A stretch of DNA of 64,000 nucleotides, taken from the IMG/VR virus record IMGVR_UViG_3300028840_008157; one strand, given 5' to 3'. A program made the translations under genes and the position numbers. Source of the stretch: a virus (Duplodnaviria > Heunggongvirae > Uroviricota > Caudoviricetes). Shown here piece by piece: positions 10,598 to 52,681 of this stretch (position 1 is its first letter; each line of letters begins with the position of its first letter). The notes under the pieces were generated by a model. It searched no databases, had not been told where the DNA came from, and saw only the letters and a list, made by a program, of their open reading frames with translations.

Positions 10598-10598
10598 C

Positions 10599-31470: not shown

Positions 31471-32060
31471 GGTTCGTCTTCGTCCACATCCAGAAGACCG
31501 GCGGAGACAGCGTTCGCTCGGCCCTGGGGCTTCCCGTCACCGGGAGGACCAAGCACTTCTCGGCCAGCGAGCACCTCGGAAGGATCGGGGTCGAGGCTTG
31601 GGGGAGCTCCTTCAGCTTCTCGTTCGTCAGGAACCCGTGGGACCGCCTCGTCTCATGGTGGGCGATGATGAGGAGAATCCGGCGTGAGAACCCGGAGGGC
31701 CGCGGACTCAACCCGTTCGCCAAGTACATCCTCGACAACTCCGATACGTTCGAGGAGTTCCTGTCCTGCGACGAGGTCATGGACTTGCCGGACGGCGCCC
31801 GATCGCTCTGGAGGAACCAATACGATTACCTGACCGGTCCCGACGGATCCATGATCGTGAGCTTCGTCGGGCGGTTCGAGCGCATCGAGTCGGACTTCGA
31901 AAAGGTCGCCAGGATCATCGGCCGCGACGCGAAGGTTCCCCACGTCAACAAGTCCCATCACGATCATTACTCCTCGTATTACACGCCCACGCTGGCGAGG
32001 ATCGTCGGCGAGCGCTTCGCGAGGGACGTCGAGGCGTTCGGGTACGGCTTCGAGGGTTAG
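31467..32060 (+). CDS. Sulfotransferase-family protein
   Basis: 5'-PSB-like motif FVFVHIQKTGGDS; start set at internal ATG forming ATGA overlap with upstream stop (track ORF begins earlier with Arg-rich junk). Confidence 0.65.
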   Translation: MRFVFVHIQKTGGDSVRSALGLPVTGRTKHFSASEHLGRIGVEAWGSSFSFSFVRNPWDRLVSWWAMMRRIRRENPEGRGLNPFAKYILDNSDTFEEFLSCDEVMDLPDGARSLWRNQYDYLTGPDGSMIVSFVGRFERIESDFEKVARIIGRDAKVPHVNKSHHDHYSSYYTPTLARIVGERFARDVEAFGYGFEG

Positions 32061-32064
32061 GGAA

Positions 32065-32784
32065 TTGTACACGATGGAGGAGAACTGGGCGCTGGTCGAG
32101 GAAGCCAGGCGCAGGGTTTCCGGGCGCCGACCGCGCGAGCTCGGGATCCTGTTCCTCTATCACAAGACGTGCGACGTAACCGAGAGGAACCTGGAGTCGC
32201 TCGAGCGATCGGGTCATCTCGTGATCCCGATCTCGATGGAGAGGGGCGCGTACTTCTCTTCCGGTTACTGGCTCGAGCAGACCCCGTTCTGGGGCGACCT
32301 CACGGGGTACGACCCGCGGAGGTGCTGGTATAATATGGACGCCTGCTATTACGAGTACTATCGCAGGCGCAACGAGAACTGCAAGCGATGGCTCCTCGCG
32401 GAATGGGACGTCCTGTGCAAGGGACGCGTCGAGGACTTCTACGGGAACCTCTGGGACGAGGACTTCGTCGCCGCCACGATCCATCCCCCTGAGGGTAGCC
32501 GCTGGCATTGGTTCAAGGAGGTCGAATCGCTGCCTTACTACATGCGCGGACGCGCCTTCGGGGCGTCGCCCCTCGCCGGCGTCCTGTTGTCGGACGACTG
32601 CATGGAACGGATCGTCCGCGAGTCGTGGCGCATCGACGCCTTCTGCGAGCTGAGGATCGCCACGCTCGCCAGGTTCGCGGGGCTCCTGCCGATTCGCAAT
32701 CCCAGGGCGCGGGGAAAGCTGAAATGGAGGCCGAGCCCGGTGGTCGACGGCGACGGCCTCTGGCATCCGGTCAAGGAAATGTGA
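32065..32784 (+). CDS. Hypothetical protein (239 aa) within glycan cluster
   Basis: Clean ORF, Trp/Tyr-rich; no motif recognised. Confidence 0.5.
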   Translation: MYTMEENWALVEEARRRVSGRRPRELGILFLYHKTCDVTERNLESLERSGHLVIPISMERGAYFSSGYWLEQTPFWGDLTGYDPRRCWYNMDACYYEYYRRRNENCKRWLLAEWDVLCKGRVEDFYGNLWDEDFVAATIHPPEGSRWHWFKEVESLPYYMRGRAFGASPLAGVLLSDDCMERIVRESWRIDAFCELRIATLARFAGLLPIRNPRARGKLKWRPSPVVDGDGLWHPVKEM

Positions 32785-32787
32785 CCC

Positions 32788-35700: not shown

Positions 35701-36339
35701 GGGATCGCCCCGGCGCCTGCGAAGGTCAGGATCGTCTCCTTCTTCAAGGACAACATCCCGGAGGAGGCGAGGTCGGCGCAGCGGGCGGTCATGAGGAAGT
35801 TCGGGCAACGGATCGAGCAGTTCCGGTTCGCGGCCACGCACCAGCAGGCCATCGACGGGTTCATGAGCGAAATGGATTGGAGCCGCCACGACTTCCTCGT
35901 CATCCTCGACATCGACGCCGTGCCCACGAGCGACGAGGGAATCCCGTACATGGTCGAGGAGATGAGGAGAGGGCGCCTCGTCGGCTGCGCGCAGGCCGCG
36001 AACCACGGCCATATGAACCGCGACCACGTCTACGTCGGGCCGTTCTGCGTCGGCCTGACGAGGGACGTCTTCGAGGCGCTCGGGAGGCCCTCCTTCCTGG
36101 AGACCGCCAGGTCCGACGTCGGGCAGGAGCTCACGTGGCTGGCGCAGGAGAAAAACGTGCCCGTCTCCATGATGCTGCCGACGAGCGTCGAGGAGCCCCG
36201 CTGGGCGCTCGGCCCGACGGGCAAATTCGGGCTGGGGACGGGATACGGGGTCGCCGGCGTCGAGTTGTTCTGGCACGCCTTCGAGTCCCGGTACCGGACC
36301 GAGCGGTTCGTCAGGAAGTGCAAGGAGCTGCTGGCATGA
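32788..36339 (+). CDS. Giant multidomain glycosyltransferase (1183 aa): N-terminal unknown region, type-I GT-A module, Trp-rich repeat domain, type-II GT-A module, C-terminal unknown domain
   Basis: VVPCMGRLEHL..IVDWSCPEY..CFLDCDMIVS..GGYDGRMEGWGYEDTDF and ISLCTTCKGRLWQL..NVDADNFLGEGF..GGYLESLAPMGHLDNE. Confidence 0.8.
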   Translation: MFLVAKREITEHKGDPEEMKKLLLRDDYLYACFLYSDPLSPLFVHVKPGKARLMADWESNDFWFMEVPTSFLYPSETSLRMGHGASMAHFSRLGWIAEDDAWIENRMPVRQYEQRIQGLLGHFEEKRLLFFGSLDGHDERGETRRSQVKLLETAGFTIVTKSFFPEPTRKLIDVLEDERCCAVLGMDGLSVGCMRDHEVALSAVPYLRVTRTIQNVPFVNPTGRAWVATAQGADVGRAFAEMKASASCGTMSERLLDARDVSLAMRDNWRFFQCLDACCFDSDSALRAAEEIAIRDASIPEAIEGALPGKVLEAEKVDTFMVFDSDGSLLPGRFKIGEVHGASEGRPALLQSLVGEKGLPKNPLISFVVPCMGRLEHLQRALPRLSQQPNSEVVIVDWSCPEYCGDWADKFPRTRVVRVPGQRTFNLSKARNAGAGEARGEWLCFLDCDMIVSPKFATELSKGFKDKSYVSFGTLGSAGHSGMTTCRKADWEAVGGYDGRMEGWGYEDTDFKHRLRLRGLSGVVVDMSLAKHIDHDNEARTRFYDDDQATSHGRNEALSQRKIKDRKKIVGLWKATHSSWKGFLFFDEDGSFSRQAHGDHGSWLLEDGELVLRWAKWPPERLKEKEPGQYAGTFMTLSKEEPLKRKDDESLQYVGDWTVRHDDWKDTISLLRDGTFHRSSVKWEGGTWESLGGRVLLKWDRWGTETANYEDGSLVGDRFVAVRPWRLEHPKISLCTTCKGRLWQLSRTFLGNVRRALEEYDNVEFVLMDYGSQDGLEDWARTKLRKYVDEGIVKYCKLVDDLPWHASKSRNLAHRMASGVILCNVDADNFLGEGFVKKLSFEVGPKKAVRLAGDASVGGRIAVHKDDFFAVGGYLESLAPMGHLDNEFERRLGSNGVRVIHWPSGPLPVENTDAQRAEFCDRSYAECMAHSKKVMDRNPVVNERFQRATVRVNWSRTVELGPERGDVRKKLGIAPAPAKVRIVSFFKDNIPEEARSAQRAVMRKFGQRIEQFRFAATHQQAIDGFMSEMDWSRHDFLVILDIDAVPTSDEGIPYMVEEMRRGRLVGCAQAANHGHMNRDHVYVGPFCVGLTRDVFEALGRPSFLETARSDVGQELTWLAQEKNVPVSMMLPTSVEEPRWALGPTGKFGLGTGYGVAGVELFWHAFESRYRTERFVRKCKELLA

Positions 36340-37532
36340 GACGACGCGCGAGACCAAAACTCTTCTGCGTCAAGCCTCGGCTTCCCGTCGAGGAGCCGAA
36401 GCAGATTGTCGTCCAAGACGAGCACAAGGAGCCGGAATCATTCCTCGAAAGGGTCGCCAATCAGAGGATTCTCGTCGTGGGAAACGGGCCAAGCGCGCTT
36501 CGATGCGCCAAGATGATGGAGGAGTTCGACGTCGTCGTCAGGTTCAACAAGTTCGCCATCAGGGAGGGGACCGGCGCAAGGACGGACGTATGGGCGTGCT
36601 GCCTACTTCCCGACGTCATAGACCATATTGTTTCCAATGTCGAGAACATCAAACCCAAAGTCGTATTTCTTGTGCAACACGATAAATCTGATGATTGGTT
36701 GTCAAAATGCATTGACCGAGTTAAAAAAACAGGCATTCGCCTTTGTATATCTTGCCGAGACGAGTGGGAACGTATGGTACAAGAGTTAGACGGGGGTCCT
36801 CCAACAACGGGAGCCATGGTCGTAAACAAATTAATAGAAACGGGGGCCAAACCTACATTGATAGGGTTTGACCAGGTTTGCGGAAATCTAAAAAGTTATT
36901 TTAGACAAGAGGATATGTACTGGAGACACGTTCCATTTATCGAAAGTACATGGCTTATAAAACAAAGAAACCATGGATATCTCAACATTGAAGGCTTAAT
37001 TACTGAAAAAGAAGAAGATGAAAAATATTCGAGTTGTTATGCCCATGGATACGGTCATGGTCCTATTTTTGAATTATTTTCGTTCGGCAAAAAAATAAAC
37101 GCTTTTGATCATGTTCGAACCATATTTGACGCCGGATGCGGTACTGGCGAAGCCATGTTAATGCTCCGGAGCAATGGTTTTTATGTATCAGGAATAGATA
37201 TATCGTCTTTGGCAGTCGACAAGGCTTCGTCTTCGGGACTAGAAGTGATTCATGGGTCGCTAACACAAATCCCCTCCTGTCATTTTGACCTCGTATGGTG
37301 TTGTGATGTACTTGAACATTTGCCAATGATTTGGTTAAACGAAGCTTTGATAAAAATCAAAGGGGTTTCTAAAAGATGCTTATTCAGCATATCTACACGT
37401 AAAAGTATGTTTCGTAAAAATTTGCATTTAACGGTTCGCTCTCCAGGTTGGTGGTCTGAATTGTTGTCTTCCTATTTTTCTATACGACAGTACGAAACTA
37501 CCAAAGATTCCATCAAGATTTTTACGGCCTAA
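36336..37532 (+). CDS. Fusion protein: CstII/GT42-like sialyltransferase-type N-domain + class I SAM-dependent methyltransferase C-domain
   Basis: ILVVGNGPSALRCAKMMEEFDVVVRFNKF (cf. CstII IIAGNGPSL..DFDVFRCNQF); FDAGCGTGEAMLML...FDLVWCCDVLEHL MTase motifs I and post-I; ATGA overlap with upstream stop; 3' two-thirds AT-rich. Confidence 0.75.
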   Translation: MRRRARPKLFCVKPRLPVEEPKQIVVQDEHKEPESFLERVANQRILVVGNGPSALRCAKMMEEFDVVVRFNKFAIREGTGARTDVWACCLLPDVIDHIVSNVENIKPKVVFLVQHDKSDDWLSKCIDRVKKTGIRLCISCRDEWERMVQELDGGPPTTGAMVVNKLIETGAKPTLIGFDQVCGNLKSYFRQEDMYWRHVPFIESTWLIKQRNHGYLNIEGLITEKEEDEKYSSCYAHGYGHGPIFELFSFGKKINAFDHVRTIFDAGCGTGEAMLMLRSNGFYVSGIDISSLAVDKASSSGLEVIHGSLTQIPSCHFDLVWCCDVLEHLPMIWLNEALIKIKGVSKRCLFSISTRKSMFRKNLHLTVRSPGWWSELLSSYFSIRQYETTKDSIKIFTA

Positions 37533-38910
37533 CAGCAATTACAAAGAACGTGTTGTTCGGCAATCGTAATTCCGTCGTCGTTCCAACATATACATCGTAT
37601 GGATGTATTGTTTGGCCTACTTTAATTCCAACTCGTTCTCCTGTTTTATTGAGTCCCTTCGGAATACGAACATTACGTGTAGAATCTTTGGCGAAGAATA
37701 CCGTCATAGGCATATAGACATCTACATCAAAAGGCGAAGACGCTATGCCTTGAAGAAGAGTCCATCCTTCGTATTTTTTGGGTACATCGATCAGAGTATA
37801 ATCCCTATTAGTATATAGTCTTTGACCATCCTTGAGTGGTATTTGGTTGCATGATGTCTTGAATCTGAATCTAATCAATCGCGTCTGTCCTCTTCGTGGC
37901 GTATCGGAGAATAGAATAGTTTTTTGTTGGTTTTCTATTCTCTTGTTTTGGTCACAAAAACCTAACTTTGCCAAGCTCAATATTCGAGTTTCTTCTGTAA
38001 TGCATACAGTACATGGGGCCATGGCTCTTTGCCCTTCTTTGTCAATTAAAGGCTTCCCATCCGCAAAAACCATCCAGCCGTCCCCCATCTCGGCGGACGT
38101 CGTCACCTCCACGTCGAACTTCGGTTTCTCCAGCTTGACCACGTCGGTCTTCACGATGGCGTCCCCCGCGACGGCCTCCACCGTCGCGTCCTCGTACTTG
38201 TCCTTCCGCAGGACCAGCTTGGCAGGCCCCTTGGGCAACCGGACCAAACCCGGGGTCCGAAGCCCCGTGTCGCGCAGCTCGCCGCCCTGCCTGACCAGGA
38301 TGGTGGCCCCTCGCGGGTCGCTCTGGACGTACACCTTGCCGTCGCCGCGCTCGGCACTGCCGACCACGTCGGTCTTGGGCTTGGCGGATACCATCTTCAT
38401 CAGCTTGAGGGACTGGTCGAGCGCGGTGAACCCCTCCGGCGTCCCCTTGAAGCGGTCCGCGACCTCGAAGTAGCGGACGGCCTTCAGGAGAGGGTCGGTG
38501 GTGTTCCGGGCGTACTCGTTGGCCCTGACCAGCCAGACCTTGGCGTCCTTGGGATCGACCTTCTTCTCGACGACCTCCTGGACGACTTTGGCGACCTTGG
38601 CGTCGCCGGCCAGCGCGTTGGCCTGGGCCAGCGTCATCCTCTTCTTGGCCCAGTAGAGCAGGGAGTTGGCCTCGGCGGCCCTCTCCTCGTTCCCGGACGC
38701 CTGGAACGCCTCGCTCGCCTTGGCGAGGACCTTGACGGCCTCGACGAGCTTCTCCTCCTTCAGGAGGGTCACGCCCTCCTTGAGCAGCTCCTGGGGTGTG
38801 GGGTTGGACGCCGTCACGACCACCTCGTGGTCCTTGGTTGGGCGTTCAACGCCGAAAAGCGGCATGACGAAGACCAGGACCAGCGGCAGCGCTCTCGTTA
38901 GGAATCTCAT
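37522..38910 (-). CDS. Secreted protein (462 aa) with signal peptide and helical/TPR-like N-domain; C-terminal third AT-rich
   Basis: MRFLTRALPLVLVFVMPLFG signal; convergent 10-nt overlap with 36336..37532. Confidence 0.65.
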   Translation of the reverse strand: MRFLTRALPLVLVFVMPLFGVERPTKDHEVVVTASNPTPQELLKEGVTLLKEEKLVEAVKVLAKASEAFQASGNEERAAEANSLLYWAKKRMTLAQANALAGDAKVAKVVQEVVEKKVDPKDAKVWLVRANEYARNTTDPLLKAVRYFEVADRFKGTPEGFTALDQSLKLMKMVSAKPKTDVVGSAERGDGKVYVQSDPRGATILVRQGGELRDTGLRTPGLVRLPKGPAKLVLRKDKYEDATVEAVAGDAIVKTDVVKLEKPKFDVEVTTSAEMGDGWMVFADGKPLIDKEGQRAMAPCTVCITEETRILSLAKLGFCDQNKRIENQQKTILFSDTPRRGQTRLIRFRFKTSCNQIPLKDGQRLYTNRDYTLIDVPKKYEGWTLLQGIASSPFDVDVYMPMTVFFAKDSTRNVRIPKGLNKTGERVGIKVGQTIHPYDVYVGTTTELRLPNNTFFVIAVRP

Positions 38911-39023
38911 TTCTTCTTTCCTCCTGACCGCTTGCGCCGGGCCTTCTTTTCACCCTTGGCCTTCAGGCTCCGTATCTTGTTACAAGCCCATCCGGGGACG
39001 AACGCGTCGCGCAGACCGGGCCC

Positions 39024-39329
39024 TTATCTGTAGTTCGGCGGGTATCCAGGGTATCGCCGGGCCTTGTTGTACTCGTCCTCGTTATGCGCCCTGCGCATCT
39101 CCTCCTCGTGCTCGCGCATGTCCATCTCATGTCGAAGCATCTCGATCTCGTGCTTGCGGCTGGATCGCTCGATGGAGGCCCGCTTGATCCCATCCGCCGA
39201 CAGCAGCAGGATGACGATGATCGCCCCAGCGATCCCGACGCCAGCCCCGGGGCCCTTCCCGTCACGCTCCTCGGCCTCCTCGACGCTGTCCGTGGCCGTC
39301 CTGAAGCCCTGATGTCGCTGAACGTCCAT
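39024..39329 (-). CDS. Small single-TM membrane protein
   Basis: Internal ATG preceded by GGAGGAGGA; TM GIAGAIIVILLL; His/Glu-rich tail. Confidence 0.5.
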   Translation of the reverse strand: MDVQRHQGFRTATDSVEEAEERDGKGPGAGVGIAGAIIVILLLSADGIKRASIERSSRKHEIEMLRHEMDMREHEEEMRRAHNEDEYNKARRYPGYPPNYR

Positions 39330-39373
39330 TCGTCCTCCTCCTTTGGCTCCCCTGCCGGGCCTTCTTTTCACAC

Positions 39374-39616
39374 TCAGGACGGCTTCAACTTCTTGACGAG
39401 CGCGTCGATGAACGCGCACCCCTCGCAGGAACACCCCTCGGGGCCACGCGGTTCAGGACAGCGGTATTTCTCGTCGTCCAGGACGGCGATCAGGAATTCC
39501 ACCTCCTTCTTGGACAAGGACACGTCGGCCTGACCGGCACGATGACGAAGTTCTTCTCCTCCTCCTACGAAAACCTGCTTGGACTTCTTAGACTTCGGCA
39601 TGTCAGCTCTCCTCAT
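39374..39616 (-). CDS. Small Cys-containing protein (80 aa)
   Basis: CPEPRGPEGCSCEGC motif. Confidence 0.4.
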   Translation of the reverse strand: MRRADMPKSKKSKQVFVGGGEELRHRAGQADVSLSKKEVEFLIAVLDDEKYRCPEPRGPEGCSCEGCAFIDALVKKLKPS

Positions 39617-39635
39617 CCCCTATCGATCATCAGGA

Positions 39636-40148
39636 TCAACATGAGGGTTCCCTTCTTCTCTGCCTGCTCCCGGCGATCTCCCCGTCGTCCTTGACGGCCT
39701 TGGTGAACATCCCGAACGGGAAGAGATGACCCGGCTCGGAGAGGCACCAGAGATGGAACTGGTTGGCGGAGTCAACGAGCCTCGACTCGGCCGGATAGAG
39801 CTCGACCGCCTCGTTCTCCGGTCCGACGATGGCGTTCTTGATCTCCTGGAGCTCGCGCCAGTCGTGGATGACGTCCTTGTCGCGGCGCTTGATGCTGAGG
39901 TGGATGATGTCGGGCCATCCCTCGGGGCCGTCGTTCCGCTGGACGATCACCTGGTACTTGTCGTTCAGGTAGACTTCCCCCTTGAAGCCGCGCTCGGCGG
40001 CCTTCCTGGCGTCCTTCATGAATTGCTCGCGGCTCGGGAGCGGCCCGTCGGGGATGACGCTCCTGGGATCGGCGTCGAACGCCTCGACCGTCTCCCTGAC
40101 GACGCGCTCGACCTCCTCCGGCGGTATCGTCGCCCTCTCGAACTTCAT
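39636..40148 (-). CDS. Hypothetical protein (170 aa)
   Basis: Clean ORF. Confidence 0.55.
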   Translation of the reverse strand: MKFERATIPPEEVERVVRETVEAFDADPRSVIPDGPLPSREQFMKDARKAAERGFKGEVYLNDKYQVIVQRNDGPEGWPDIIHLSIKRRDKDVIHDWRELQEIKNAIVGPENEAVELYPAESRLVDSANQFHLWCLSEPGHLFPFGMFTKAVKDDGEIAGSRQRRREPSC

Positions 40149-40546
40149 TCGTCATCCTCCTCGTCCGGGTCATCGCCGGGGAAGTACTCGTCGGGACGCT
40201 TGGCGTAGCGAACCTCGACGCCGGAATCCTCGAAGAACCCCACGCAGAATAGATCCTCGAGCGGACGTCGGGCCAGCCGACGCCTCTCGATCTTGCGAAT
40301 CTCCTTCATCGCCGCCTTCCAGGCGTCGTAGGATGAACAGTCGTAGCCCTTGCAATCGAGCATGTACGTCGGGATGCCCTTGGCGGGCGAAAGGGAAACG
40401 TAGTTCAGGCGGCTTGCGCTGCCGTCCTCCGGCTCGTAGTCGGTCTCGACGACGGAGAAGAGGCGCTTCCCGGTGCTGAGCTTGACCAGGCAGGACTCCT
40501 GGCCCCCGTTGCATTCCCTGACCCGAACATGGACGAACTCGGTCAT
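40145..40546 (-). CDS. Hypothetical acidic protein (133 aa)
   Basis: Internal ATG MTEFVHV forms ATGA overlap with stop of exonuclease gene. Confidence 0.5.
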   Translation of the reverse strand: MTEFVHVRVRECNGGQESCLVKLSTGKRLFSVVETDYEPEDGSASRLNYVSLSPAKGIPTYMLDCKGYDCSSYDAWKAAMKEIRKIERRRLARRPLEDLFCVGFFEDSGVEVRYAKRPDEYFPGDDPDEEDDE

Positions 40547-41256
40547 TTCAAGCCTCCCCTCTCGTAAAGCGCCGCCTTGACGAGCCACGCGACGGCGGTC
40601 GCGTCGTCCATGGCCCTGTGTTGTTTCATCCCGGGCATCTCCGGCCACTTCTCCCGGAGGCGCTCCAGGCAATTCTCCGTCGACGGAGTCTTCTCGTCCC
40701 CGTCCCTGTAATAAAGGACCGCCGGGTCGATGACCCTGGGACGGAACAGCCCGTCGAACTGCGGGTCAAGCCGTCTCAGGAACCTGGCGTCGAAACCGGC
40801 GAAGTTCTTCCCGGCCACGTTGGCCATGCCGTCGTCTGACCAGACCCTCTTGAACCACCCCCTGAAGATCGGGTAAGCCTTCTCCCTCCTGACCACGTAG
40901 AAGGACTCGTCCAGCTTGATGACCTCCTTCTGGCGCATGGCCTCGCGGTAGGTGTCCAGCTCGACCCAGAGATCGGAGTGCATGGCCAAGACTTCCAGCC
41001 GGGCCGTGATCTCCTTGTCGGGCATGACGAGGATGCGGATGGGGTTCTCGAGCGGGGCGTATACGTAGTCGCTGATGGCCTTGCGCAACTCGTCGCCCGC
41101 CGGAAGCAACTTCAGGCGCTCCGTGGCTTTACGGTCCATGTCCCCCTTGAAGAACGAGAGCGGCCTGACCTGCGATACCCCGGCGGCGATCTCGACGACG
41201 AGGTCTCGGTCCGAGTCGAGACCCGTGGTCTCGAGATCCATGGAAATGAACTTCAT
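40543..41256 (-). CDS. DnaQ-like 3'-5' exonuclease (DEDDh, DNA pol III epsilon family)
   Basis: Exo I motif MDLETTGLD, Exo III motif HRAMDDATAVAWL. Confidence 0.8.
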   Translation of the reverse strand: MKFISMDLETTGLDSDRDLVVEIAAGVSQVRPLSFFKGDMDRKATERLKLLPAGDELRKAISDYVYAPLENPIRILVMPDKEITARLEVLAMHSDLWVELDTYREAMRQKEVIKLDESFYVVRREKAYPIFRGWFKRVWSDDGMANVAGKNFAGFDARFLRRLDPQFDGLFRPRVIDPAVLYYRDGDEKTPSTENCLERLREKWPEMPGMKQHRAMDDATAVAWLVKAALYERGGLK

Positions 41257-41723
41257 TTTTTGGCCCCTTTCCGGCGCGAACGGCCGGGCCTTCGTTTCAC
41301 TTTCTTCTTGGAGAGGGCCTTCGCTCCGGGCGAAACCCCGTCCATGGCCTTCCTCATGCGCATCGCCATGTCGAAGGCCATTTCCGCGTCTTTCTTGTTC
41401 AGCATCTTGAAGCTCCCGAAGATGGGCATTCCATTGACGCTTCGGGGGAGCGCTTCGCTGAGGTTCTCGTAGAGCAGCCCGAGGCTTTTTAGGTCGACGT
41501 CGTTCATGGCGCCGAGGGCGATCGGCATGAAGATCATCGGCAGGTTGTTTCGCTCGTGCTCAGGGACGTGCCTGTCAGTAAATACCTGTCCCGTCGCGAT
41601 CCCCCTAGCGACTTCCTTGATGGTCTCCGAGGGGACGCTCTTGATCTTGTGGGGCTTGACCTTCGGACTGGGCATCATGTCTCTCCTCGGAACGAAGGAT
41701 ACGACACGACACGGGGAAGTCAA
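41253..41723 (-). CDS. Hypothetical basic protein (156 aa)
   Basis: Lys/Arg-rich C-terminus. Confidence 0.45.
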   Translation of the reverse strand: MTSPCRVVSFVPRRDMMPSPKVKPHKIKSVPSETIKEVARGIATGQVFTDRHVPEHERNNLPMIFMPIALGAMNDVDLKSLGLLYENLSEALPRSVNGMPIFGSFKMLNKKDAEMAFDMAMRMRKAMDGVSPGAKALSKKKVKRRPGRSRRKGAKK

Positions 41724-41950
41724 GGCGAATTCGTGTAAATATCGTCGTCGAGCATGTCGAGGAGGTGCATCTCGTCCCTAAGGACGTTGAACGCGGGCAA
41801 TTCCGAAAACGAGTTGACGGTGAACGTCCTTCGCGTGGCCGCCAAGGGGCTCGGGTACTCGACGAAATGATTCACCACCTCCGGCAGGTACACGTCGGGC
41901 AATTCCGAGGCCAGGAGAATGACCACGTCTTGCCATCTAAACTCTTCCAT
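41720..41950 (-). CDS. Small protein, cassette member A
   Basis: Pairs with downstream gene as duplicated two-gene unit. Confidence 0.4.
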   Translation of the reverse strand: MEEFRWQDVVILLASELPDVYLPEVVNHFVEYPSPLAATRRTFTVNSFSELPAFNVLRDEMHLLDMLDDDIYTNSP

Positions 41951-42197
41951 TTTGTTGCCTCGGCGCGAAAGCCCGGTCTCTGGCCGACAGGGGGATGTCC
42001 TGTACCGCGTGTTCTTGGATGACGCCCCAGTTCGGTCCGGTCATGACGAATACGCCGGTCGAGTTCTCGCCGCTGGCCTCCTCGGGAAGCTCCTCCGCGT
42101 ACCGCGCCTCGATCTCGGCCAGGTTCGGGCAGGCGTCGCACATGGCGCAATACCCGACGTTCTCAAGCTCGACGACGACCTCGGCGACGGCTCTCAT
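41937..42197 (-). CDS. Small protein, TGPNW-family paralog B
   Basis: VVVELENVGY...MTGPNWGVIQEHAVQDI shared with 42393..42623. Confidence 0.5.
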   Translation of the reverse strand: MRAVAEVVVELENVGYCAMCDACPNLAEIEARYAEELPEEASGENSTGVFVMTGPNWGVIQEHAVQDIPLSARDRAFAPRQQNGRV

Positions 42198-42396
42198 TGT
42201 TCCTCGTCCTCATGTTGAAGATGACCCCCCTCAGGAGGGCGGGGTCTTTGAATCGGGCTTGAACCTCGGACAAGAAGGACGCCCAAGGCTCGTCGTCAGG
42301 TCGAGCGATGCCGGCCCGGAAACAGTAGGCGGCCATGGCGTCCACGAGATCGTATTCATGCTTCCTGACGAGGAACAGCACGTTTGTCCCGGTCAT
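42163..42396 (-). CDS. Small protein, cassette member A'
   Basis: Internal ATG MTGTNVLFLVRKHEYDLVD; ATGA overlap with upstream stop. Confidence 0.4.
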   Translation of the reverse strand: MTGTNVLFLVRKHEYDLVDAMAAYCFRAGIARPDDEPWASFLSEVQARFKDPALLRGVIFNMRTRNNESRRRGRRRA

Positions 42397-42623
42397 ATGA
42401 CGTCCTCCACGTGCGGCTCTATGGCCGTCCAGTTGGGGCCGGTCAGGAGCGTCGATCTCGATCCCCCTGCGACTGCGTACGCCTCGTCGCTCAGGAACAA
42501 CGCCCTGCCGTATCGATCCTCCGCCTCCATGAACGTCAGGGTCGCGCAACGGCTCCTGAGAACCTTCCAGACGTGGTTCTCGAGCTCGGAGACTATCTCC
42601 GTCGTCAGGTCAAGTCGTTTCAT
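42393..42623 (-). CDS. Small protein, TGPNW-family paralog B'
   Basis: IVSELENHVW...LTGPNWTAIEPHVEDVI. Confidence 0.5.
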   Translation of the reverse strand: MKRLDLTTEIVSELENHVWKVLRSRCATLTFMEAEDRYGRALFLSDEAYAVAGGSRSTLLTGPNWTAIEPHVEDVI

Positions 42624-42990
42624 CGGGTTTCGGGACCGACATGATCTGCGTCAGTTGCTTGAGTCTTTGGTTCTTGGAGACGCATCTCTTCTCGACGTCC
42701 TCCTGGAGGATCTTCAGGAACTCATCGGCGAGCTCGTCCCCGAACTGGGCCCGGATGTCGTTCGATATCTTGTCCACGAGGTGATGGATGTTGATCACCG
42801 ACGACCCGATCATCCTCCCGAGATCGGCGGGGTCCTTCGCCACGAGCTTCATGATGACCTTGCAGCCGCTCTCGCCGTCCTCGTCGACGTAGGACAGCAT
42901 GGAGAGCATCGACTGGCATTTCTTCCCGGTCATCTTCTCGAGGAGCCTCTCGGCGTCCCTCTGGACCTCATCCGTGTCGTACTCGAACAT
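42610..42990 (-). CDS. Hypothetical acidic protein (126 aa)
   Basis: Clean ORF. Confidence 0.5.
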   Translation of the reverse strand: MFEYDTDEVQRDAERLLEKMTGKKCQSMLSMLSYVDEDGESGCKVIMKLVAKDPADLGRMIGSSVINIHHLVDKISNDIRAQFGDELADEFLKILQEDVEKRCVSKNQRLKQLTQIMSVPKPDETT

Positions 42991-43192
42991 TTCCTTCCCT
43001 CCTCCATTGGATCGCGTCGAGAATCTCGTCCTCGAGAATCCTCCAATTCGGGTAGCCGATGTCGATTCTCGATCCTATGCTGGCCCGAATATAACGCCGG
43101 AACGGCAATGACGAAAAGACGTTCCGAAATGCCCGGAACGAATGGAACCTCCTGAACGCGACGCCGGCCCGTTCGCTGGAGAACTCGCACAT
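42968..43192 (-). CDS. Possible small basic protein (74 aa) immediately downstream of ARH gene
   Basis: ATG sharing one nt with ARH stop (TAATG); GGGGAACGAATA upstream; tail of a junk-headed track ORF. Confidence 0.3.
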   Translation of the reverse strand: MCEFSSERAGVAFRRFHSFRAFRNVFSSLPFRRYIRASIGSRIDIGYPNWRILEDEILDAIQWRREGNVRVRHG

Positions 43193-44157
43193 TATTCGTT
43201 CCCCTTCCTCAAGGCGTCCGCCAACCCGAGCAGCTTCTCCTCGTGCTCGACGCGTCCGAGCCATTCCTTGGGAATCGCGCCCATCCCCAAACGAGCCCCC
43301 ATCAACGCGCCGGTGATGCAGGCGATGGTGTCCGAGTCGCCGGGCGTGTTGGCCGCCATCAACACGGCCTTCCGGAAGTCGTCCGGGGAGGACATGCAAC
43401 AGTAGAGGGCGCAGGCGACGGCCTCGTGACCCTGCCACCCGTCTCCGAGCTGGCCGCCCATCAGGGCCTCCTCGGGGGACAACAAGCCGACCGATGACGT
43501 GGCGGCGTTGATCGACGTGGAGAACTCGTCGCTTATCCCGCCGACGACGTCCATGAGCTCGTGGCCCCACGTCCCGACGGGCGCGCCCCTCATCGCCACC
43601 GAGCAGAGGAGGGCCGTCGCCACGGAGGCGCAACGGGCGACGTCGTCGGCGTGGGTGATCTGGGCCGTCGCGATCCCGTACTGGACGATGTTCGGGACGT
43701 CCTCGTGAAACCAAAGCCCGATGGGGGCGGAGCGCATGGCCGTCCCGCTCCCCCTCGACCCGGCGATCCCCGCGTTGCCCCAGTCCTTCCCGGACGCGAG
43801 CGCGCGGCAGGCCGCCATGCAGGTGTTGCCCGGATCCCTGGCCTGCGCCGGGTCCTGCTGGGACCTGAACCACTCGACGAACTCGGCCGAGAGCCTCGTC
43901 CCGTAGCGGGCCAGGACGGCGTCCCCCTCGACGACGCCGACGCGGGGCTTGGACGCGATCAGCGCTCTCGCCACGCGCATGGTCATTTGCGTGTCGTCGG
44001 AGACGATGGCGTTCTCGGGCAGAGACGTGACCCCGTCGGGGCCATGAATCTTCCTTATCTCGTCCATCGACCCCACGAACTCGACCTGGTAACCGAGGCA
44101 ATCGCCCAGGGCCAGCCCGATCATGCAACCCTTGTACTTGTCGTCGTCTCTCATCAT
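43192..44157 (-). CDS. ADP-ribosylglycohydrolase (ARH/DraG family)
   Basis: GLALGDCLGYQVEF, SDDTQMT, GNAGIAGSRGSGTAMR, GDSDTIACITGAL motifs. Confidence 0.85.
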   Translation of the reverse strand: MMRDDDKYKGCMIGLALGDCLGYQVEFVGSMDEIRKIHGPDGVTSLPENAIVSDDTQMTMRVARALIASKPRVGVVEGDAVLARYGTRLSAEFVEWFRSQQDPAQARDPGNTCMAACRALASGKDWGNAGIAGSRGSGTAMRSAPIGLWFHEDVPNIVQYGIATAQITHADDVARCASVATALLCSVAMRGAPVGTWGHELMDVVGGISDEFSTSINAATSSVGLLSPEEALMGGQLGDGWQGHEAVACALYCCMSSPDDFRKAVLMAANTPGDSDTIACITGALMGARLGMGAIPKEWLGRVEHEEKLLGLADALRKGNE

Positions 44158-45626
44158 TAGAACCCCTTGAACTTGTCCAAGATCTGCGCCTTCAGGTCGT
44201 CCGCGAAGTCGAGCGTATGCTTGTCGTCGGAGAAGGAGCTCGGCGCGATGACCCCTCCGACGGCGTCAATGTAGCAACTGAACTTGCCTTCCCCGAGGCG
44301 GTAAAGCTTCTCGGGGATCTCGTCGTAACCGGCCCAACCGTTCTTCTTCGACTCCTCCATGAGCGTCGTGTCGGCCGACAGCGTCCACGGGAAGTCCTTG
44401 CGCGTCGTGACCTTTCTGTTCGCCTTCTTGACGTCGATGATCCAGTCGGAATATTGCTTCGGAGAGTACTTCAGTCCTCGCCCGGCGCGCTTGAATCCAA
44501 GGGCGACGACGCCGAGGTCGAGCTTGATCGCGTCCTCGATGAAGTACGGGAACTCGTAGGACTCCATGATGCCCATCGGGACGTGTATCTTGACCTTGTT
44601 CCGGTCGAAGCCGTTGTCGTCGACCAGGGCCGCCAGGCGCGGGAGCATCGTCCTGTCCGTCGTCGAGATGGCGAACGCCCCGCAGTTCTCCTTGACCGAG
44701 TCCCTTATCTCTGGGTTCCGCATCCAGTCGAGCGAGCGCGTCGAGAAGTTCGGGACGACGTCGTTCTTCCTGAAGTTCCCCAGGAGCTCGGCGAACTTCG
44801 GGTGGAGGACCGGGTCGCCGCCCCCGATGGCGACCTCGAAGACGCCCATCTCCGAGAGGGCCCACGCGATCGAGTACAGGTCGTCATGAATCGCGTCGGT
44901 CCCGGCCGATGACGAGCTCTGGTAGCAATACTCGCAGGCGCAATGGCACCTCTCCGTGATCTTCAGGTCGACGAGCTCGGGGACGAGCGCCCGCTCGACC
45001 TTCTTGGCGGGGACGCCGTCCATCCGGCAACGAATCTTCGTCCCGGTCCCTTGGTTGAACAGGACCCATTCGTCGCTGTCCTTGCGGCAAATCCAATCTC
45101 GGCAATAATCCGGCCTCATCGAAACGCCATGGTCGTCCATGAACGCCCTGGCCGCGTCCTCCGGTAGTCCGGTGACGAATGGTAGCTCGACCTTTCCCTC
45201 GTCGACGAGATAATGATTGTGGTCGTCGTTGTCGTTTCCGCCCAGGATGGCGACCTCGGGACGCAGGACGTTCTCCATGAGCTCGTCGAACAGCTCCCTG
45301 CTCGGCATGATCTGCCCGTGGGTCCTCGGGATGACGAAACAACTCTGGTGATCGACGTAGCCGTGCTTGTCGAGGGGAACCCCGACCCATTCCTTGACGA
45401 TGATTTCGACCATGTCGTTCGGGAGGTTCTGGGAGAGCGTGGCCTTCAGGATTTGCGCCATGTAGCTCTGCTTGGCGCGCGCGCTCTTGGCCGTGAAGAA
45501 GTTCCAGCCGAACTCGCCGTCTTCCACGTCCTTGTCGTTCACCCCGGACGGGTCGCGGACGTGGACGATGGAATGCGTGGAGCTGCTGTTCGTGGCGAAC
45601 CCCAGCCTGACGTTGAATATCCGCAT
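44157..45626 (-). CDS. Radical SAM enzyme (489 aa) with ~200-aa N-terminal extension of unknown function
   Basis: CxxxCxxC cluster ITERCHCACEYCY plus GGGDP-like downstream motifs. Confidence 0.85.
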   Translation of the reverse strand: MRIFNVRLGFATNSSSTHSIVHVRDPSGVNDKDVEDGEFGWNFFTAKSARAKQSYMAQILKATLSQNLPNDMVEIIVKEWVGVPLDKHGYVDHQSCFVIPRTHGQIMPSRELFDELMENVLRPEVAILGGNDNDDHNHYLVDEGKVELPFVTGLPEDAARAFMDDHGVSMRPDYCRDWICRKDSDEWVLFNQGTGTKIRCRMDGVPAKKVERALVPELVDLKITERCHCACEYCYQSSSSAGTDAIHDDLYSIAWALSEMGVFEVAIGGGDPVLHPKFAELLGNFRKNDVVPNFSTRSLDWMRNPEIRDSVKENCGAFAISTTDRTMLPRLAALVDDNGFDRNKVKIHVPMGIMESYEFPYFIEDAIKLDLGVVALGFKRAGRGLKYSPKQYSDWIIDVKKANRKVTTRKDFPWTLSADTTLMEESKKNGWAGYDEIPEKLYRLGEGKFSCYIDAVGGVIAPSSFSDDKHTLDFADDLKAQILDKFKGF

Positions 45627-45658
45627 CTATCACCTCCCACGGCAAGCATACCACTAAT

Positions 45659-46381
45659 TCATGTCAGGTCAATCCACGTCCTCAACTCGTCGATGATCGC
45701 CATCACCATCGGGGGGATCATCGACTCCGACAGCATCCGATGGAGGCTCGCGTTGCCGCAGGTCTTGTAGTCCGGCGGGAACCCGTACAGCATCAGGCTC
45801 TCGGGCTTCGTCAGCCTCCTCGGGCCGTCCTTGCCTGGAACCTTGGGAAATGGCCCCTTGTGGTAGCGCGGCTTCCGGCACGGCTCGTCGACGCTCACCA
45901 GGTAGCCCTTTCGCTCGTCCCTCGGGAGGTCCTCCTTCAGGACGTGCCGGAGGACGGACGGGCTCCCGTCGGGGAACGGAAAGTCCCGGAAAAGAGTCTC
46001 GAGGTCCTCCCTGAGCATGACGTTCATGCGCCTCTTCCCGACGAGCGGCGCGCCGAACCGCCTCGGCTCGAGCTCGTCGACCCACGCCCTGTAGCCCGTC
46101 GGAGGATCGACGTCGCCCTCCGCGATGATGACGCGGGGGGAGAACACGGCCAGGACGGACCACGCGTCTCCGGGCCACCCCTTGCAGACCAGCATGTCGG
46201 CGTGCGGTATCCTGTCCGCAGGGAGCTTCGACGGCGACTCGAACTCGACGTCGGGGAAATTGCGACCCGCGACCCGACGCGCCAGGTGATCGTCGTCCCA
46301 GGCCAGCATCGGGAACCCGCTCCTCTTGCGGACGGCCAGGATGCCGGCCCCCATGCCGCAGGAAAGGATGATCGCCCTCAT
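45659..46381 (-). CDS. Short DNA (cytosine-5) methyltransferase-like protein (atypical/degenerate)
   Basis: N-terminal IILSCGMGAG (motif I-like) and C-terminal LMLYGFPPDYKTCGNASLHRMLSESMIPPMV (motif X-like); PC motif not clear. Confidence 0.45.
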   Translation of the reverse strand: MRAIILSCGMGAGILAVRKRSGFPMLAWDDDHLARRVAGRNFPDVEFESPSKLPADRIPHADMLVCKGWPGDAWSVLAVFSPRVIIAEGDVDPPTGYRAWVDELEPRRFGAPLVGKRRMNVMLREDLETLFRDFPFPDGSPSVLRHVLKEDLPRDERKGYLVSVDEPCRKPRYHKGPFPKVPGKDGPRRLTKPESLMLYGFPPDYKTCGNASLHRMLSESMIPPMVMAIIDELRTWIDLT

Positions 46382-46412
46382 GTCCTTTCATCATACGACG
46401 TATGATTCCAGA

Positions 46413-47525
46413 ATGAAAGAGCTTCGTTGGCTCGGTCCAATCCTCGATTGCTCCGGATACGCGTCGGCCGGTCGGGGGTACCTGCGGGCCGCCGAGTCCA
46501 CCGGCATCAGGATCAGGGCTTGCGAGCGCGGTAGATCGGCGGCGCTGGCATCTCGCGGGATGGACGACGAGGCCTACGCCCTTTACGACAGGCTGTCACG
46601 CGTCAAGGTTTCCCGCGACGCCCCTACCGTCCAGCACCAGACCGCCGACACGTTCTTTCGCGACAACAGGACGAGCTTCTCGATAGGCTATACGATATTC
46701 GAGATGTGTTCGGTTCCTAGTTGCTGGGTTCCTTATTGCGACATGATGGACGCGATCTGGACCGGCAGCGAGTATTCCAAGGACGCGCTGGTAAACGCGG
46801 GCGTCAAGAGCCCGACATGCGTCTTGCCTCACGCCCTTGACATGGAAGCCTATTCCCCAAATGGCGCGCGGTGGGGGATTTCAAACCGTCGCGGCTTTGC
46901 CTTCCTGAGCGTCTTCGACTTCACCGAGCGGAAGGCTTGGCGCGACCTCCTCAGGGCTTACTGGACGGCCTTTCGGCCGGACGAGGACGTCTGCCTCGTC
47001 CTGAAGATATACTTCGGGGACTTCGGGGACGCCGCCCGCAAGGACCTCATCCTGCGCATCCTGCGGTACAGGCGCGAGCTCGGGCTCACGAGCTCCCCGA
47101 AGATACTCATGTACGGGCATGACGTCCCGGCGAACATGATGCCGGCCCTATACCGGTCGTGCGACTGCTACGTGGGCGTTTCCAGGGAAGGGTTCGGGCT
47201 TCCCTACGCCGAGGCCATGGCTTGCGGGATCGGCTGCATCGGACCGGAGGTCGGCGGAACGAGGCAGTTCATGAGCGAGTCCAACTCCTTCCTCGTCAAG
47301 TACGTGGACGACGAGCCCGTCTCCCCGGAGATGACGTCCATGTTCCCGGCGTTCAAGGGGCTTCGATGGGCGCGCCACTCGTGGGAGCACTTGTCCGAGG
47401 TGATGCGGCGCGTGGTCGATGACCGCGAGGAGTTCAGGATGAGGGCCGCGCTGGGGACCAAGGAAGTGCGCTCGATGTTGTCCTATGAAGCCATAGGGGA
47501 ACGAATGAAGGAGCTGCTGCCGTGA
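46413..47525 (+). CDS. GT4 (GT-B fold, family 1-like) glycosyltransferase
   Basis: SREGFGLPYAEAMACGIGCIG E-x7-E motif; start at internal ATG MKELRW. Confidence 0.75.
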   Translation: MKELRWLGPILDCSGYASAGRGYLRAAESTGIRIRACERGRSAALASRGMDDEAYALYDRLSRVKVSRDAPTVQHQTADTFFRDNRTSFSIGYTIFEMCSVPSCWVPYCDMMDAIWTGSEYSKDALVNAGVKSPTCVLPHALDMEAYSPNGARWGISNRRGFAFLSVFDFTERKAWRDLLRAYWTAFRPDEDVCLVLKIYFGDFGDAARKDLILRILRYRRELGLTSSPKILMYGHDVPANMMPALYRSCDCYVGVSREGFGLPYAEAMACGIGCIGPEVGGTRQFMSESNSFLVKYVDDEPVSPEMTSMFPAFKGLRWARHSWEHLSEVMRRVVDDREEFRMRAALGTKEVRSMLSYEAIGERMKELLP

Positions 47526-47832
47526 GGGAGATCGTCAAGGAGACGTTTTGGATCGTCCTCTTCCTCCCGTTCATGGCCGTGGCGGCGTTGGTATCCATAC
47601 CGCCGGCCATGGCTGTCATGATCATGTGGCGCTTGCGTAATCGTCAATGACGCTTCGCCGCAGCCGATGTATCTCGTACTCGACGCGCATGAGCCGTACT
47701 GAAATCGAACGAGGAGGACGTGACAAAAATCCCTCGTGCGCAGGCCGTCCCCCACCGCCTTCCATGCGTTAAACAACGAACCCTGGAGGGTCAAATGGGA
47801 GGTGTCCCTGTTAGGTAAGCCAGGAAAACCCA

Positions 47833-48252
47833 TTAGGACGGCATCCTGAGCAACTGGTAAGCCCTTGATTTTGGCCCGACGGCGAGGAGGACGTGGCGGC
47901 TCTCGGGGCCAGGTGGATGCTCCGTGAAACACAACGGCATCCATCTGTCATGACGTCGTAGGGCCTTGTTCTTGCGCTTCGCGAATTCCCACAACTCGGC
48001 CCGCGCCTTGTCGAGGTCCTTGTATTTCAGCCATGGGATGAAAACCTCGTCTCCCTCGTTTATCTCCGTCGGGACGCCGCCTCGATGGCACGCCACGTAG
48101 ACGATCTCGCGGGGGTCGCGCTCGACGTACACGCCCACGGGCTTCTCTGGCTTCTTGACGACCTCCATCTTCTCGTCTTGAAGACGCCTCCCGCAAGCCG
48201 CCAGCGCCAAGGGAACTCCGGGCAGCGCGACAAGGGCTTCTCTTCTGTTCAT
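47833..48252 (-). CDS. Lipoprotein (lipobox LALAAC)
   Basis: Signal peptide + Cys. Confidence 0.5.
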   Translation of the reverse strand: MNRREALVALPGVPLALAACGRRLQDEKMEVVKKPEKPVGVYVERDPREIVYVACHRGGVPTEINEGDEVFIPWLKYKDLDKARAELWEFAKRKNKALRRHDRWMPLCFTEHPPGPESRHVLLAVGPKSRAYQLLRMPS

Positions 48253-48302
48253 GGATCGGCTCCTTTCGACGTCATCCTAGCAACGCGCCGTTCGATTTCC
48301 AA

Positions 48303-49526
48303 TCAAATCTCGACCATCCTGACCGATCCGCGAAGGTCATCCAGCCGGGGGGCCTCCTGCCTGACCAGCTCCTCGCTGAGCCGGGCGAACTCCATGTCTC
48401 CGGCGAGATCGCCCCATATCCTCGGGATCCGGGTCCTCATCGCGTCGACGAACTCCCCGAACACGTTCTTCATCGAGTAGCGGGAGGCCACCAGCGCCGC
48501 GGCCGTCGCGGACCGCTGCCTCCTGGCCCCCTCGTCCTCGAACATCTCCCGCATGACGCGCCGCAGGGCGACGCCGTCGGGCTCCGCCCACTGGATGCCA
48601 TCCAGGTCGGGGAACATGCTCGCCTCTCGCGGGGACGGCGAGGACCAGCCCCTCGGGGGTATCATCCACGCCGTGTCGTCCTTGGCGAAGTCGGTGACTC
48701 CCCCGTAGTCGGTGCATGCGACGGGAACCCCGAGCGCCATCGCGTACCAGGGGTTCATCCCGAAGCCCTCGCTCCGATGCGGGCTGAGCAACGCGTCGAA
48801 GGAGCGCATGAAGGACGGCAAGTCCTCGTCGTGCATCTGCCGGTCGATGATCGTGACGGGCGCCCGCGTCGTCCTCTTGACGCCAAGGCGCGACGCCTCC
48901 ATGGCGATGATCTCCTCGGCGCTCCTGTCGCGGTTGGTGTCCATGTACGTTTTCAGGACGAGCTCGACGGGGTCGTCGGCCGAGAACTCCTCCCACCACG
49001 ACTTGAGGAGGACGTCCCACCCCTTCCTCTCGTACCACGTGTTCATGAACAGGAAGCGGAACCTGCCGTTCGCGGGAAGCGACGGCTCGACCCCCGGGTT
49101 CCAGCGCGTCGAGTCGAGCGGGTACGGGACGAGGAACGTCTTCCTGCGCGGGTAGCCCGAGCGAAGGAACGTGGAGCGGCAGAACGTCGAGGGGGCCAGG
49201 ACGCAGTCCATGGAACGGACGCCCATCCGCTGGCGTTGGGACAGGACGTTCCCCTCGACGACGACCGACCCGACGAACGCCTCGCGATCGATCACGTCCT
49301 TCACGCTCCCGGGGATGCCGACGAGCATCTGGACCGGTTTTTTCGCCGGCCTCGAGGAGGCGGACTTCATCCTCCTCGCTAGGTCCCGTTCGACGAACGT
49401 CGTGTTGGGGCGGGATATGAACCTGGTGACGACGCGCAGACCATTATCCTCGAAAAGTCGATAGAACTCCTGGGCCGCCCTCGACAGGCCACTCGCATTC
49501 AAGAAACACGACATTACTATGTCCAT
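48303..49526 (-). CDS. GT4 (GT-B fold) glycosyltransferase
   Basis: HRSEGFGMNPWYAMALGVPVACTDYGG. Confidence 0.8.
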   Translation of the reverse strand: MDIVMSCFLNASGLSRAAQEFYRLFEDNGLRVVTRFISRPNTTFVERDLARRMKSASSRPAKKPVQMLVGIPGSVKDVIDREAFVGSVVVEGNVLSQRQRMGVRSMDCVLAPSTFCRSTFLRSGYPRRKTFLVPYPLDSTRWNPGVEPSLPANGRFRFLFMNTWYERKGWDVLLKSWWEEFSADDPVELVLKTYMDTNRDRSAEEIIAMEASRLGVKRTTRAPVTIIDRQMHDEDLPSFMRSFDALLSPHRSEGFGMNPWYAMALGVPVACTDYGGVTDFAKDDTAWMIPPRGWSSPSPREASMFPDLDGIQWAEPDGVALRRVMREMFEDEGARRQRSATAAALVASRYSMKNVFGEFVDAMRTRIPRIWGDLAGDMEFARLSEELVRQEAPRLDDLRGSVRMVEI

Positions 49527-52320: not shown

Positions 52321-52681
52321 TGGTGGAAGCGGCGGGAATCGAACCCGCGTCCCAGAGCGCTTCTTGCCGGGCTTCTACGCGCGTATCCACGTTCGGGGAC
52401 TTAGGGCTCCCCCGGTCCTGGCGACCAAACCCACGTTCTTTCCCGCCGTCACCCCGGTTTCCCGAGGGCTACCATCCCGGTTGTACTGCGTGCCTTGCCA
52501 CGAGTCGGGCCCCCGTAGCGGGTTGAAGCCCTGGTTCAGGCAGCCAGGGCGACCGCGGAGCGGTCAAGGCGAAGGATGTTCTTCGCATTTGCTACTGTGA
52601 TCGGCTTTTAACGAGGCCAACCGATCAACCTCGGCGCGCGGCCACGACCGTCCATCACCCGGTCGAAACCTTTTCGCTCCC
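52321..52681 (-). ncRNA. ssrA: tmRNA (ssrA), one-piece, ~361 nt
   Basis: 5' GGGAGCG pairs with 3' CGCTTCC-A-CCA (G3:U70, CCA encoded); T-arm GCGGGTTCGATTCCCGC; GGUUUCGACCGGG and CCGAGG..UUGGCCUCGUUAAAAGCC match conserved 5'/PK1 elements of E. coli tmRNA; tag frame GCA AAU GCG ... GUC GCC CUG GCU GCC UGA = ...SAVALAA-stop. Confidence 0.85.

Follow-up and report, generated by a model that had tools for sequence, protein, structure and literature searches.

The stretch of DNA analysed here (64,000 nucleotides of the viral record IMGVR_UViG_3300028840_008157, hereafter the window) contains, at positions 40543-46381, minus-strand genes for a radical S-adenosylmethionine (SAM) enzyme (rSAM), an ADP-ribosylglycohydrolase (ARH), a protein resembling cytosine-5 DNA methyltransferases (C5-MTases; hereafter the MTase-like protein) and a DEDDh-type exonuclease, which an original prediction had regarded as a nucleic-acid modification or counter-defence module. 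These genes head a co-oriented minus-strand string of ~8.9 kb (46381 down to 37522), bracketed on both sides by plus-strand glycosyltransferase or methyltransferase genes (Table 1). The gene calls stored for the source contig agreed with the minus-strand open reading frame (ORF) table, except for the start of the MTase-like gene. The small same-strand ORFs that had been announced downstream together with the exonuclease were confirmed: six are located between the ARH and the exonuclease genes (126, 76, 77, 86, 76 and 156 aa, with successive overlaps of 4-35 nt), none of them with a Pfam or PHROG match, and four further small genes lie 3' of the exonuclease, before the 462-aa PEGA-domain gene. 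Within the string, one intergenic gap alone is sizeable (42991-43191), and it carries a terminator-like hairpin, which may mark the end of a transcription unit formed by the MTase-like, rSAM and ARH genes; the evidence for this is weak, since the region has no more of these sites than expected from shuffling.

Table 1. Features of the gene string and of its surroundings (window coordinates)
Feature	Position	Strand	Remarks
C5-MTase-like protein, 240 aa	45659-46381	-	Pfam DNA_methylase, borderline
rSAM protein, 489 aa	44157-45626	-	Pfam Radical_SAM
rSAM N-terminal domain, aa 1-205	45012-45626	-	predicted orphan fold
rSAM core and C-terminal beta-hairpin region, aa 206-489	44157-45011	-	CX3CX2C, GGGD/E SAM motif
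ARH (ARH/DraG-fold), 321 aa	43192-44157	-	PF03747, full length
Terminator-like hairpin, 9-bp stem and T-rich tail	43120-43140	-	inside intergenic gap
Six small overlapping ORFs	42610-42990, 42393-42623, 42163-42396, 41937-42197, 41720-41950, 41253-41723	-	
DEDDh (DnaQ/RNase T-type) 3'-5' exonuclease, 237 aa	40543-41256	-	
133-aa ORF	40145-40546	-	
DUF7694 protein	39636-40148	-	
Small ORFs of 75-80 aa and 101 aa		-	within 37522-40546
PEGA-domain protein, 462 aa	37522-38910	-	last gene of the string
GT4a glycosyltransferase	46353-47525	+	
139-aa ORF			between GT4a and GT4b
GT4b glycosyltransferase	48303-49526	-	
tmRNA gene, full-length	52321-52681	-	Rfam RF00023, 110 bits; ARAGORN tag peptide ANAKNILRLDRSAVALAA
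Giant-gene run	3212-19896	-	1,967-aa PA14-domain protein; 810- and 1,100-aa Ig_Rha78A_N/dockerin-like proteins; 548-aa protein matching virion-protein PHROGs
Glycan-modification island, ~12 kb	~25000-37500, plus GT4 genes at 46353-49526		glycosyltransferases, sulfotransferase, pyruvyl-transferase domain

The genomic context of the rSAM was surveyed at 81 other loci of its family, with flanks of up to +/-10 kb. The other 16 proteins of the window, including the ARH, the MTase-like protein and the exonuclease, gave no tblastn match at these loci, and all-against-all clustering of 5,342 ORFs revealed no conserved neighbour, the only recurrent clusters being shadow ORFs inside the rSAM gene. In a Pfam census of the 135 immediate neighbours of 68 non-redundant loci, no family was represented by more than two genes; a faint RNA-ligase/kinase theme comprised 2 of these 135 neighbours, plus the one at the Salmonella phage Arash locus described below. 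The two nearest genes on each side (n=269) were co-oriented in 78% of cases and had a median length of 147 aa. Genes of the QueE, PqqE or MoaA pathways were not found at 83 rSAM loci, and the rSAM family of the window was not found at 97 other ARH loci of at least 8 kb. Hence, the survey of neighbourhood conservation for which the original prediction had called returned no recurrent partner of the rSAM.

The relatives of the locus were then compared gene by gene. In the relative L084 (55-75% aa identity) the order is GT4b, GT4a, MTase-like, a slot occupied by two genes (101 aa and 34 aa), ARH and, further on, the small genes orf126 and orf156, both conserved there, and the DEDDh exonuclease. 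The same slot contains a 122-aa gene in L124 and a 109-112-aa gene in L125 and L126. The MTase-like gene, the slot and the ARH gene are kept in these four relatives and the rSAM is absent from the slot, whose genes are unrelated to the rSAM and, among L084, L124 and L125/L126, to each other. The rSAM occupies the slot in L085 alone (73-87% identity), which possesses the whole MTase-like/rSAM/ARH trio. Since the relatives retain synteny around the slot and hold unrelated genes in it, this position is a hypervariable cargo site, with the rSAM as one of at least four alternative cargoes; that is, the rSAM is a swappable insert placed between the more stably linked MTase-like and ARH genes. The four flagged genes are thus not one conserved module or system, and tight gene packing in a huge phage need not imply a shared pathway. 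From the module originally proposed, the idea of one co-functioning unit found no support at the 81 rSAM loci or in the four relatives; what stood is a looser string of accessory or counter-defence type that contains a lineage-conserved pair of ARH and MTase-like protein, the latter without the catalytic Cys.

The 489-aa rSAM had been described as carrying an N-terminal domain of ~200 aa, and this was confirmed: the Pfam Radical_SAM match is limited to residues 222-309 and residues 1-205 match nothing in Pfam. The CX3CX2C motif (C227/C231/C234) is conserved in 100% of 224 members, a GGE-type SAM motif is present (GGGD/E at residues 268-271), and a partial TIM-barrel fold was recognised. The three columns of CX3CX2C are the only conserved Cys positions across the 224 members, with no other Cys column above 53%. 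Motifs and structural model show a protein predicted to be equipped for one [4Fe-4S] cluster and SAM binding, with nothing for auxiliary clusters. The lack of auxiliary-cluster cysteines separates the rSAM from the SPASM/twitch maturases (SuiB, SkfB, PqqE, anSME), to which it does not belong. Unlike the RRE-dependent maturases of ribosomally synthesized and post-translationally modified peptides, it has neither an RRE/PqqD-like domain nor a conserved precursor-peptide or partner gene nearby. All 21 NCBIfam radical-SAM models matching the protein scored far below their cut-offs, including the equivalogs MoaA (30.7 vs 231) and PqqE (19.4 vs 381); QueE gave no match. The viperin model NF038283 (viperin_w_prok) reached 24.1 bits against a cut-off of 180, and the PADLOC pVip match covered residues 219-290 only. 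Similarity to viperin/pVip and MoaA therefore spans just the ~70 residues of the cluster loop; in contrast to these enzymes, the rSAM has an additional invariant domain of 205 aa, and it is phage-borne whereas viperin/pVip is a host defence gene.

Positions conserved in at least 95% of the 224 members number 58, and 26 of them belong to the N-terminal domain (N-domain): R7, G9, A11, N13, S14, S15, S16, H18, S19, G40, W41, K52, Y55, D92, H93, S95, P100, G129, G130, N131, D132, N133, W187, G195, K197 and R199. The strongest motifs are R7-x-G9-x-A11-x-N13-S14-S15-S16-x-H18-S19, D92-H93-Q94-S95 and G129-G130-N131-D132-N133, and H138 is conserved too. A structure search of BFVD with the rSAM gave matches confined to members of the family, and the N-domain matched no known fold. 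Conservation and model together show what appears to be an orphan fold whose invariant polar site is rich in His, Asp, Asn and Ser. Two ideas about this protein were discarded. A glycyl-radical role for R7-L-G9-F (compare RVxG[FY]) was rejected on account of a different spacing and of members in which another residue takes the place of G9, and a self-substrate or formylglycine role is unsupported speculation, with no C/S-x-P-x-R motif present.

Full-length homologues of the rSAM numbered at least 1,428 in one search, at about 35-40% identity, and the N-terminal 205 residues used as query returned 1,273 representative clusters (50% identity). Nearly all members found with the latter query have 450-510 aa, which indicates that the two-domain architecture is fixed; the longer ones carry inteins at two different sites. 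Of the inteins in P0036 and P0176, encoded on other contigs, one directly precedes the third Cys of CX3CX2C (its +1 Cys being that cluster ligand) and the other lies within the SAM-binding motif FEVA|GGGEP. IMG/VR yielded 78 rSAM loci, 21 of them on contigs of at least 200 kb, and GTDB ~21 full-length matches in 185,579 species genomes, almost all of them on contigs of metagenome-assembled genomes (MAGs) and from many phyla. The family is therefore large, phage-specific or nearly so, enriched in huge phages and uncharacterised. Its only full-length member in a cultured phage is gp146 of Salmonella phage Arash (OQ632216; L086, 8001-9431), with 31.7% identity, whose annotation as a methyltransferase is probably a mis-annotation. 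In the vicinity of Arash gp146 are genes for NAD salvage, split genes of DNA polymerase and a gene for an RNA ligase. A literature search found no paper describing the rSAM family, and the Arash paper does not discuss gp146. Distant relatives without the N-domain occur in a Myxococcales MAG and, between relA/spoT and lepA, in Deinococcus lacus; their contexts are uninformative.

The prediction of a full ARH/DraG-type protein was also correct, as the whole PF03747 (ADP_ribosyl_GH) profile, positions 1-287 of 287, matched the ARH (E 1.3e-64). The motifs of the di-metal site are intact and conserved in the subfamily (D19, E26, S53-D54-D55-T56 and G273-D274-S275-D276-T277), and homologues were found in 31 cultured-phage records. 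The window ARH shares this full-length domain and the metal-site motifs with the ARH family, whose members in the PDB include MJ1187, ARH3, DraG and Tri1. It scored 79 bits with the DraG model TIGR02662 (cut-off 337) and was below the cut-off of the Tri1 equivalog as well. No ADP-ribosyltransferase (ART) domain is recorded for the genes across window positions 3993-55626, and neither ART nor nif genes were found within +/-10 kb of the ARH. Unlike the DraG and Tri1 systems, then, the window ARH has no DraT or Tre1-type transferase nearby, so that it is not half of a housekeeping DraG/DraT pair; it also differs from the known members of the family in being phage-encoded and in adjoining a Cys-less C5-MTase homologue. 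A precedent for its proposed logic is AdfN, a NADAR protein of T4-like phages that acts as an orphan ADP-ribose eraser countering DarTG1 (PMC11825919). The proposed likeness is that of a stand-alone phage ADP-ribosylglycohydrolase without cognate transferase that would undo host ADP-ribosylation; the folds differ (NADAR vs ARH). In the relative L128 a second ARH-family gene (11965-12945) lies 5 kb from the first, and ARH genes have thus been duplicated in the lineage.

The short, atypical character that had been noted in the C5-MTase-like protein was borne out by its 240 aa and by a borderline Pfam DNA_methylase match (23.4 bits vs a cut-off of 22) in motifs IX-X only. A profile of five homologues matched M.HhaI (E 4e-6), and the best PDB match in both searches was 2z6a, an M.HhaI entry with Ala (GFPAQAFS) at the Cys81 position. 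In common with the M.HhaI type (PF00145) the protein has motif I (SCGMGAG at residue 7), the Glu of motif VI, motif VIII in part and motif IX, which reads RRLTKPE...YGFPPDY (GPRRLT..E..L.GFP). It differs from that type in its short target-recognition region, in motif VI, where EG (E88-G in the window) or EF replaces ENV, and in motif X, which reads SESMIPP instead of GNAV and is not conserved. The main difference concerns motif IV, where CKGWP-G71-D72 is found in place of the expected GGPPCQ. The residue aligned with HhaI Cys81 is G71 in the window and G, P, A or S in the five close homologues, the clade having W-P-(G/P/A/S)-(D/E) at this motif. The relatives in L128 and L212 (24-31% identical) are clear PF00145 members (E 1e-31 and 1e-37) and have S or A at the Cys81 position, with PPSD in L128 and PPAR in L212 replacing PPCQ. 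These alignments show a homologue for which the canonical Cys-addition mechanism would not be usable. In M.HhaI, substitutions of Cys81 abolish transfer, and some raise DNA affinity. Scans of IMG/VR for the MTase-like family gave essentially nothing. Independent gene calls start the gene later (216 aa); the 240-aa start is supported by homologues of 238-241 aa that conserve the N-terminal motif I. This start (46381) overlaps the longest GT4a ORF (TTG at 46326; 46353 according to the gene caller) in divergent orientation. Homology to the GT4a relatives begins around residue 30, and the GT4a start is therefore probably a Met codon near 46413, which would leave ~31 nt between the divergent genes.

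Association of the ARH with its neighbours extends to more distant relatives. In L127, L128, L211 and L212 (ARH identity 46-48%) the ARH gene is again beside orthologues of GT4a (56-57%) and GT4b (42-45%), and in L128 and L212 the Cys-less PF00145 protein directly adjoins the ARH, divergently. The set linked throughout the lineage is thus formed by the ARH, the Cys-less C5-MTase homologue and the two GT4 glycosyltransferases. This linkage is real and, having persisted through one inversion or more, suggests a functional tie without proving it. Synteny of the DEDDh exonuclease and the small ORFs, by contrast with the lineage-wide set, is observed in the closest relatives only, the exonuclease gene being syntenic in L084 (54% identity) and L124. 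The exonuclease possesses complete DEDDh motifs (D7-x-E9, N151-x3-F155-D156 and H213-x4-D218) and matched PHROG 192 (E 1.5e-14), the PADLOC DEDDh model (2e-11) and, at the borderline, Pfam (24.3 bits vs 24). It shares Exo I, Exo II and Exo III (with H-x4-D) with the DnaQ/RNase T enzymes and differs from them in an insertion of ~120 aa between Exo I and Exo II and in having no adjacent polymerase partner.

We favour, with moderate confidence, the reading that positions 40543-46381 form the upstream portion of an accessory gene string of host-takeover or counter-defence type, that is, a mosaic of independently acting genes and not a pathway. For the ARH, the MTase homologue and the rSAM we infer the following functions. 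The ARH would most likely remove ADP-ribose from protein or nucleic acid, for example undoing the action of host ADP-ribosyltransferase toxins. The MTase homologue has lost the Cys nucleophile and has kept the SAM loop, the motif-VI Glu and motif IX, which contacts DNA, and so is probably non-methylating: it would bind DNA, might flip a base and would make no 5-methylcytosine. The rSAM is best seen as a self-sufficient two-domain cargo enzyme that would act alone. Judging from motifs and fold, its core would produce a 5'-deoxyadenosyl radical with the help of SAM and a single [4Fe-4S] cluster, and the N-domain probably binds the substrate or processes it further. As phages of widely differing hosts carry the family and no partner gene accompanies it, the substrate is probably present in almost all hosts, a nucleotide or nucleic acid for instance.

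Several observations weigh against this mosaic reading. The stop codon of the rSAM gene and the start codon of the ARH gene share one base; together with the possible single transcript of the MTase-like, rSAM and ARH genes, this makes it likely that the rSAM is co-expressed with its neighbours. In L127 (4299-5914) the MTase homologue is replaced beside the ARH by a 213-aa gene without a Pfam match and by a SPASM-type rSAM of 338 aa with a Cys-rich C-terminal SPASM tail. This protein is of another family, with 27% identity over 97 aa to the window rSAM, and its position near the ARH could be a hint of a recurring rSAM-ARH theme. The ARH-MTase-GT4 linkage, in turn, was found in one phage lineage (about seven independent contigs) and could be inherited synteny: 93 ARH loci of at least 8 kb, with less than ~42% ARH identity, had no GT4a/GT4b-like, MTase-like, rSAM or DEDDh neighbours, one weak GT4b match (24%) apart.

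Each domain of the block comes from a known superfamily; what is new is a large phage-specific rSAM family with a novel N-domain and, in association with a phage ARH, a C5-MTase homologue that naturally lacks the Cys. The combination had been said to resemble no described system, and searches of PADLOC, NCBIfam and the literature agreed in returning none. PADLOC recognised only generic MTase, pVip and DEDDh fragments in the block, and none of its genes passed an equivalog-level test for a characterised enzyme. Radical-SAM enzymes usually carry out chemistry that is otherwise inaccessible, and one that stands alone and is widespread among large phages probably points to an as yet unrecognised step in nucleotide metabolism or in the conflict between phage and host. 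Only tentatively can it be proposed that the family serves host takeover or counter-defence through an undescribed radical transformation of a near-universal substrate (a nucleotide, a nucleic acid or a metabolite derived from NAD), and that the N-domain is a new fold whose His, Asp, Asn and Ser residues form a catalytic or metal site. Within the block, the rSAM family most merits an experiment, and the question is tractable because a cultured member, Arash gp146, exists. The Cys-less MTase homologue beside the ARH extends the emerging theme of phage ADP-ribose erasers and suggests a reuse of DNA-MTase scaffolds by phages for roles other than methylation; the two proteins could be a new DNA-directed anti-defence pair.

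The lineage-wide linked set is also open to a reading in terms of glycans, according to which the ARH, the Cys-less MTase-like protein, GT4a and GT4b make up a pathway for glycans or glyco-conjugates, for example in the glycosylation of virion, DNA or cell surface; the ARH would then be a glycohydrolase whose substrate is primed or is not ADP-ribose. The persistence of both GT4 orthologues beside the ARH through rearrangements (L127, L128, L211, L212) agrees with it, as does the presence in the window of the nearby ~12-kb island of glycosyltransferase, sulfotransferase and pyruvyl-transferase genes. We nevertheless consider it rather unlikely, since the ARH keeps the canonical metal motifs of ADP-ribose hydrolases, the MTase-like protein keeps the motif IX of DNA MTases, and the linkage, confined to one lineage, is gone at ARH identities of 42% or less.

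That the rSAM acts together with the MTase-like protein and the ARH, and perhaps with the exonuclease too, in one pathway of nucleic-acid hypermodification or counter-defence is quite improbable. The tight co-oriented packing with overlap of the rSAM and ARH genes, the trio preserved in L085 and the different rSAM near the ARH of L127 are what such a pathway would have in its favour; against them stand the 81 other rSAM loci, from which the other components are missing, the 97 other ARH loci without this rSAM family, the unrelated slot genes of the four relatives and the fact that the L127 rSAM is of a different family. An origin as cellular housekeeping genes or a prophage remnant, with a DraG-type regulator and a QueE/PqqE/MoaA-like cofactor enzyme, finds an echo in the generic weak matches to MoaA, PqqE and viperin over the cluster-binding residues and is effectively refuted by the MoaA, PqqE and DraG scores far under their cut-offs, by the absence of pathway neighbours from the rSAM loci, by the scarcity of the family in the GTDB species genomes (mostly MAG contigs) and by the source, a 547-kb contig of mostly orphan ORFs.

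Regarding that source, the exact rSAM protein is encoded on a metagenome contig of 546,627 bp (ENA ERZ27256783). This contig (~547 kb) is probably a huge phage, on the basis of its giant PA14- and Ig-domain proteins, a virion-protein PHROG hit, a predominance of orphan ORFs, the tmRNA gene, the glycan island and the lack of DNA similarity to cultured phages; positions 40-47 kb of the window had no match in a DNA similarity search of 50,697 phage records. The giant genes listed in Table 1 are probably of structural, tail-fibre or adhesin type. Among the genes of the glycan island are no fewer than five of GT2 type, with two giants of 1,094 and 1,183 aa, together with a GT32-like gene, a SAM-MTase, a sulfotransferase and a pyruvyl-transferase domain. 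The GC content at window positions 36001-38000 is 0.47, compared with about 0.61 elsewhere; this segment spans a 398-aa SAM-methyltransferase gene (about 36336-37532, plus strand), and the low GC suggests horizontal acquisition in recent times. A 137-aa ORF with a YAcAr domain (PF10686) was located at 21764-22177 (plus strand), adjoining a gene for a small SEC-C-motif protein at 21316-21492 (minus strand).

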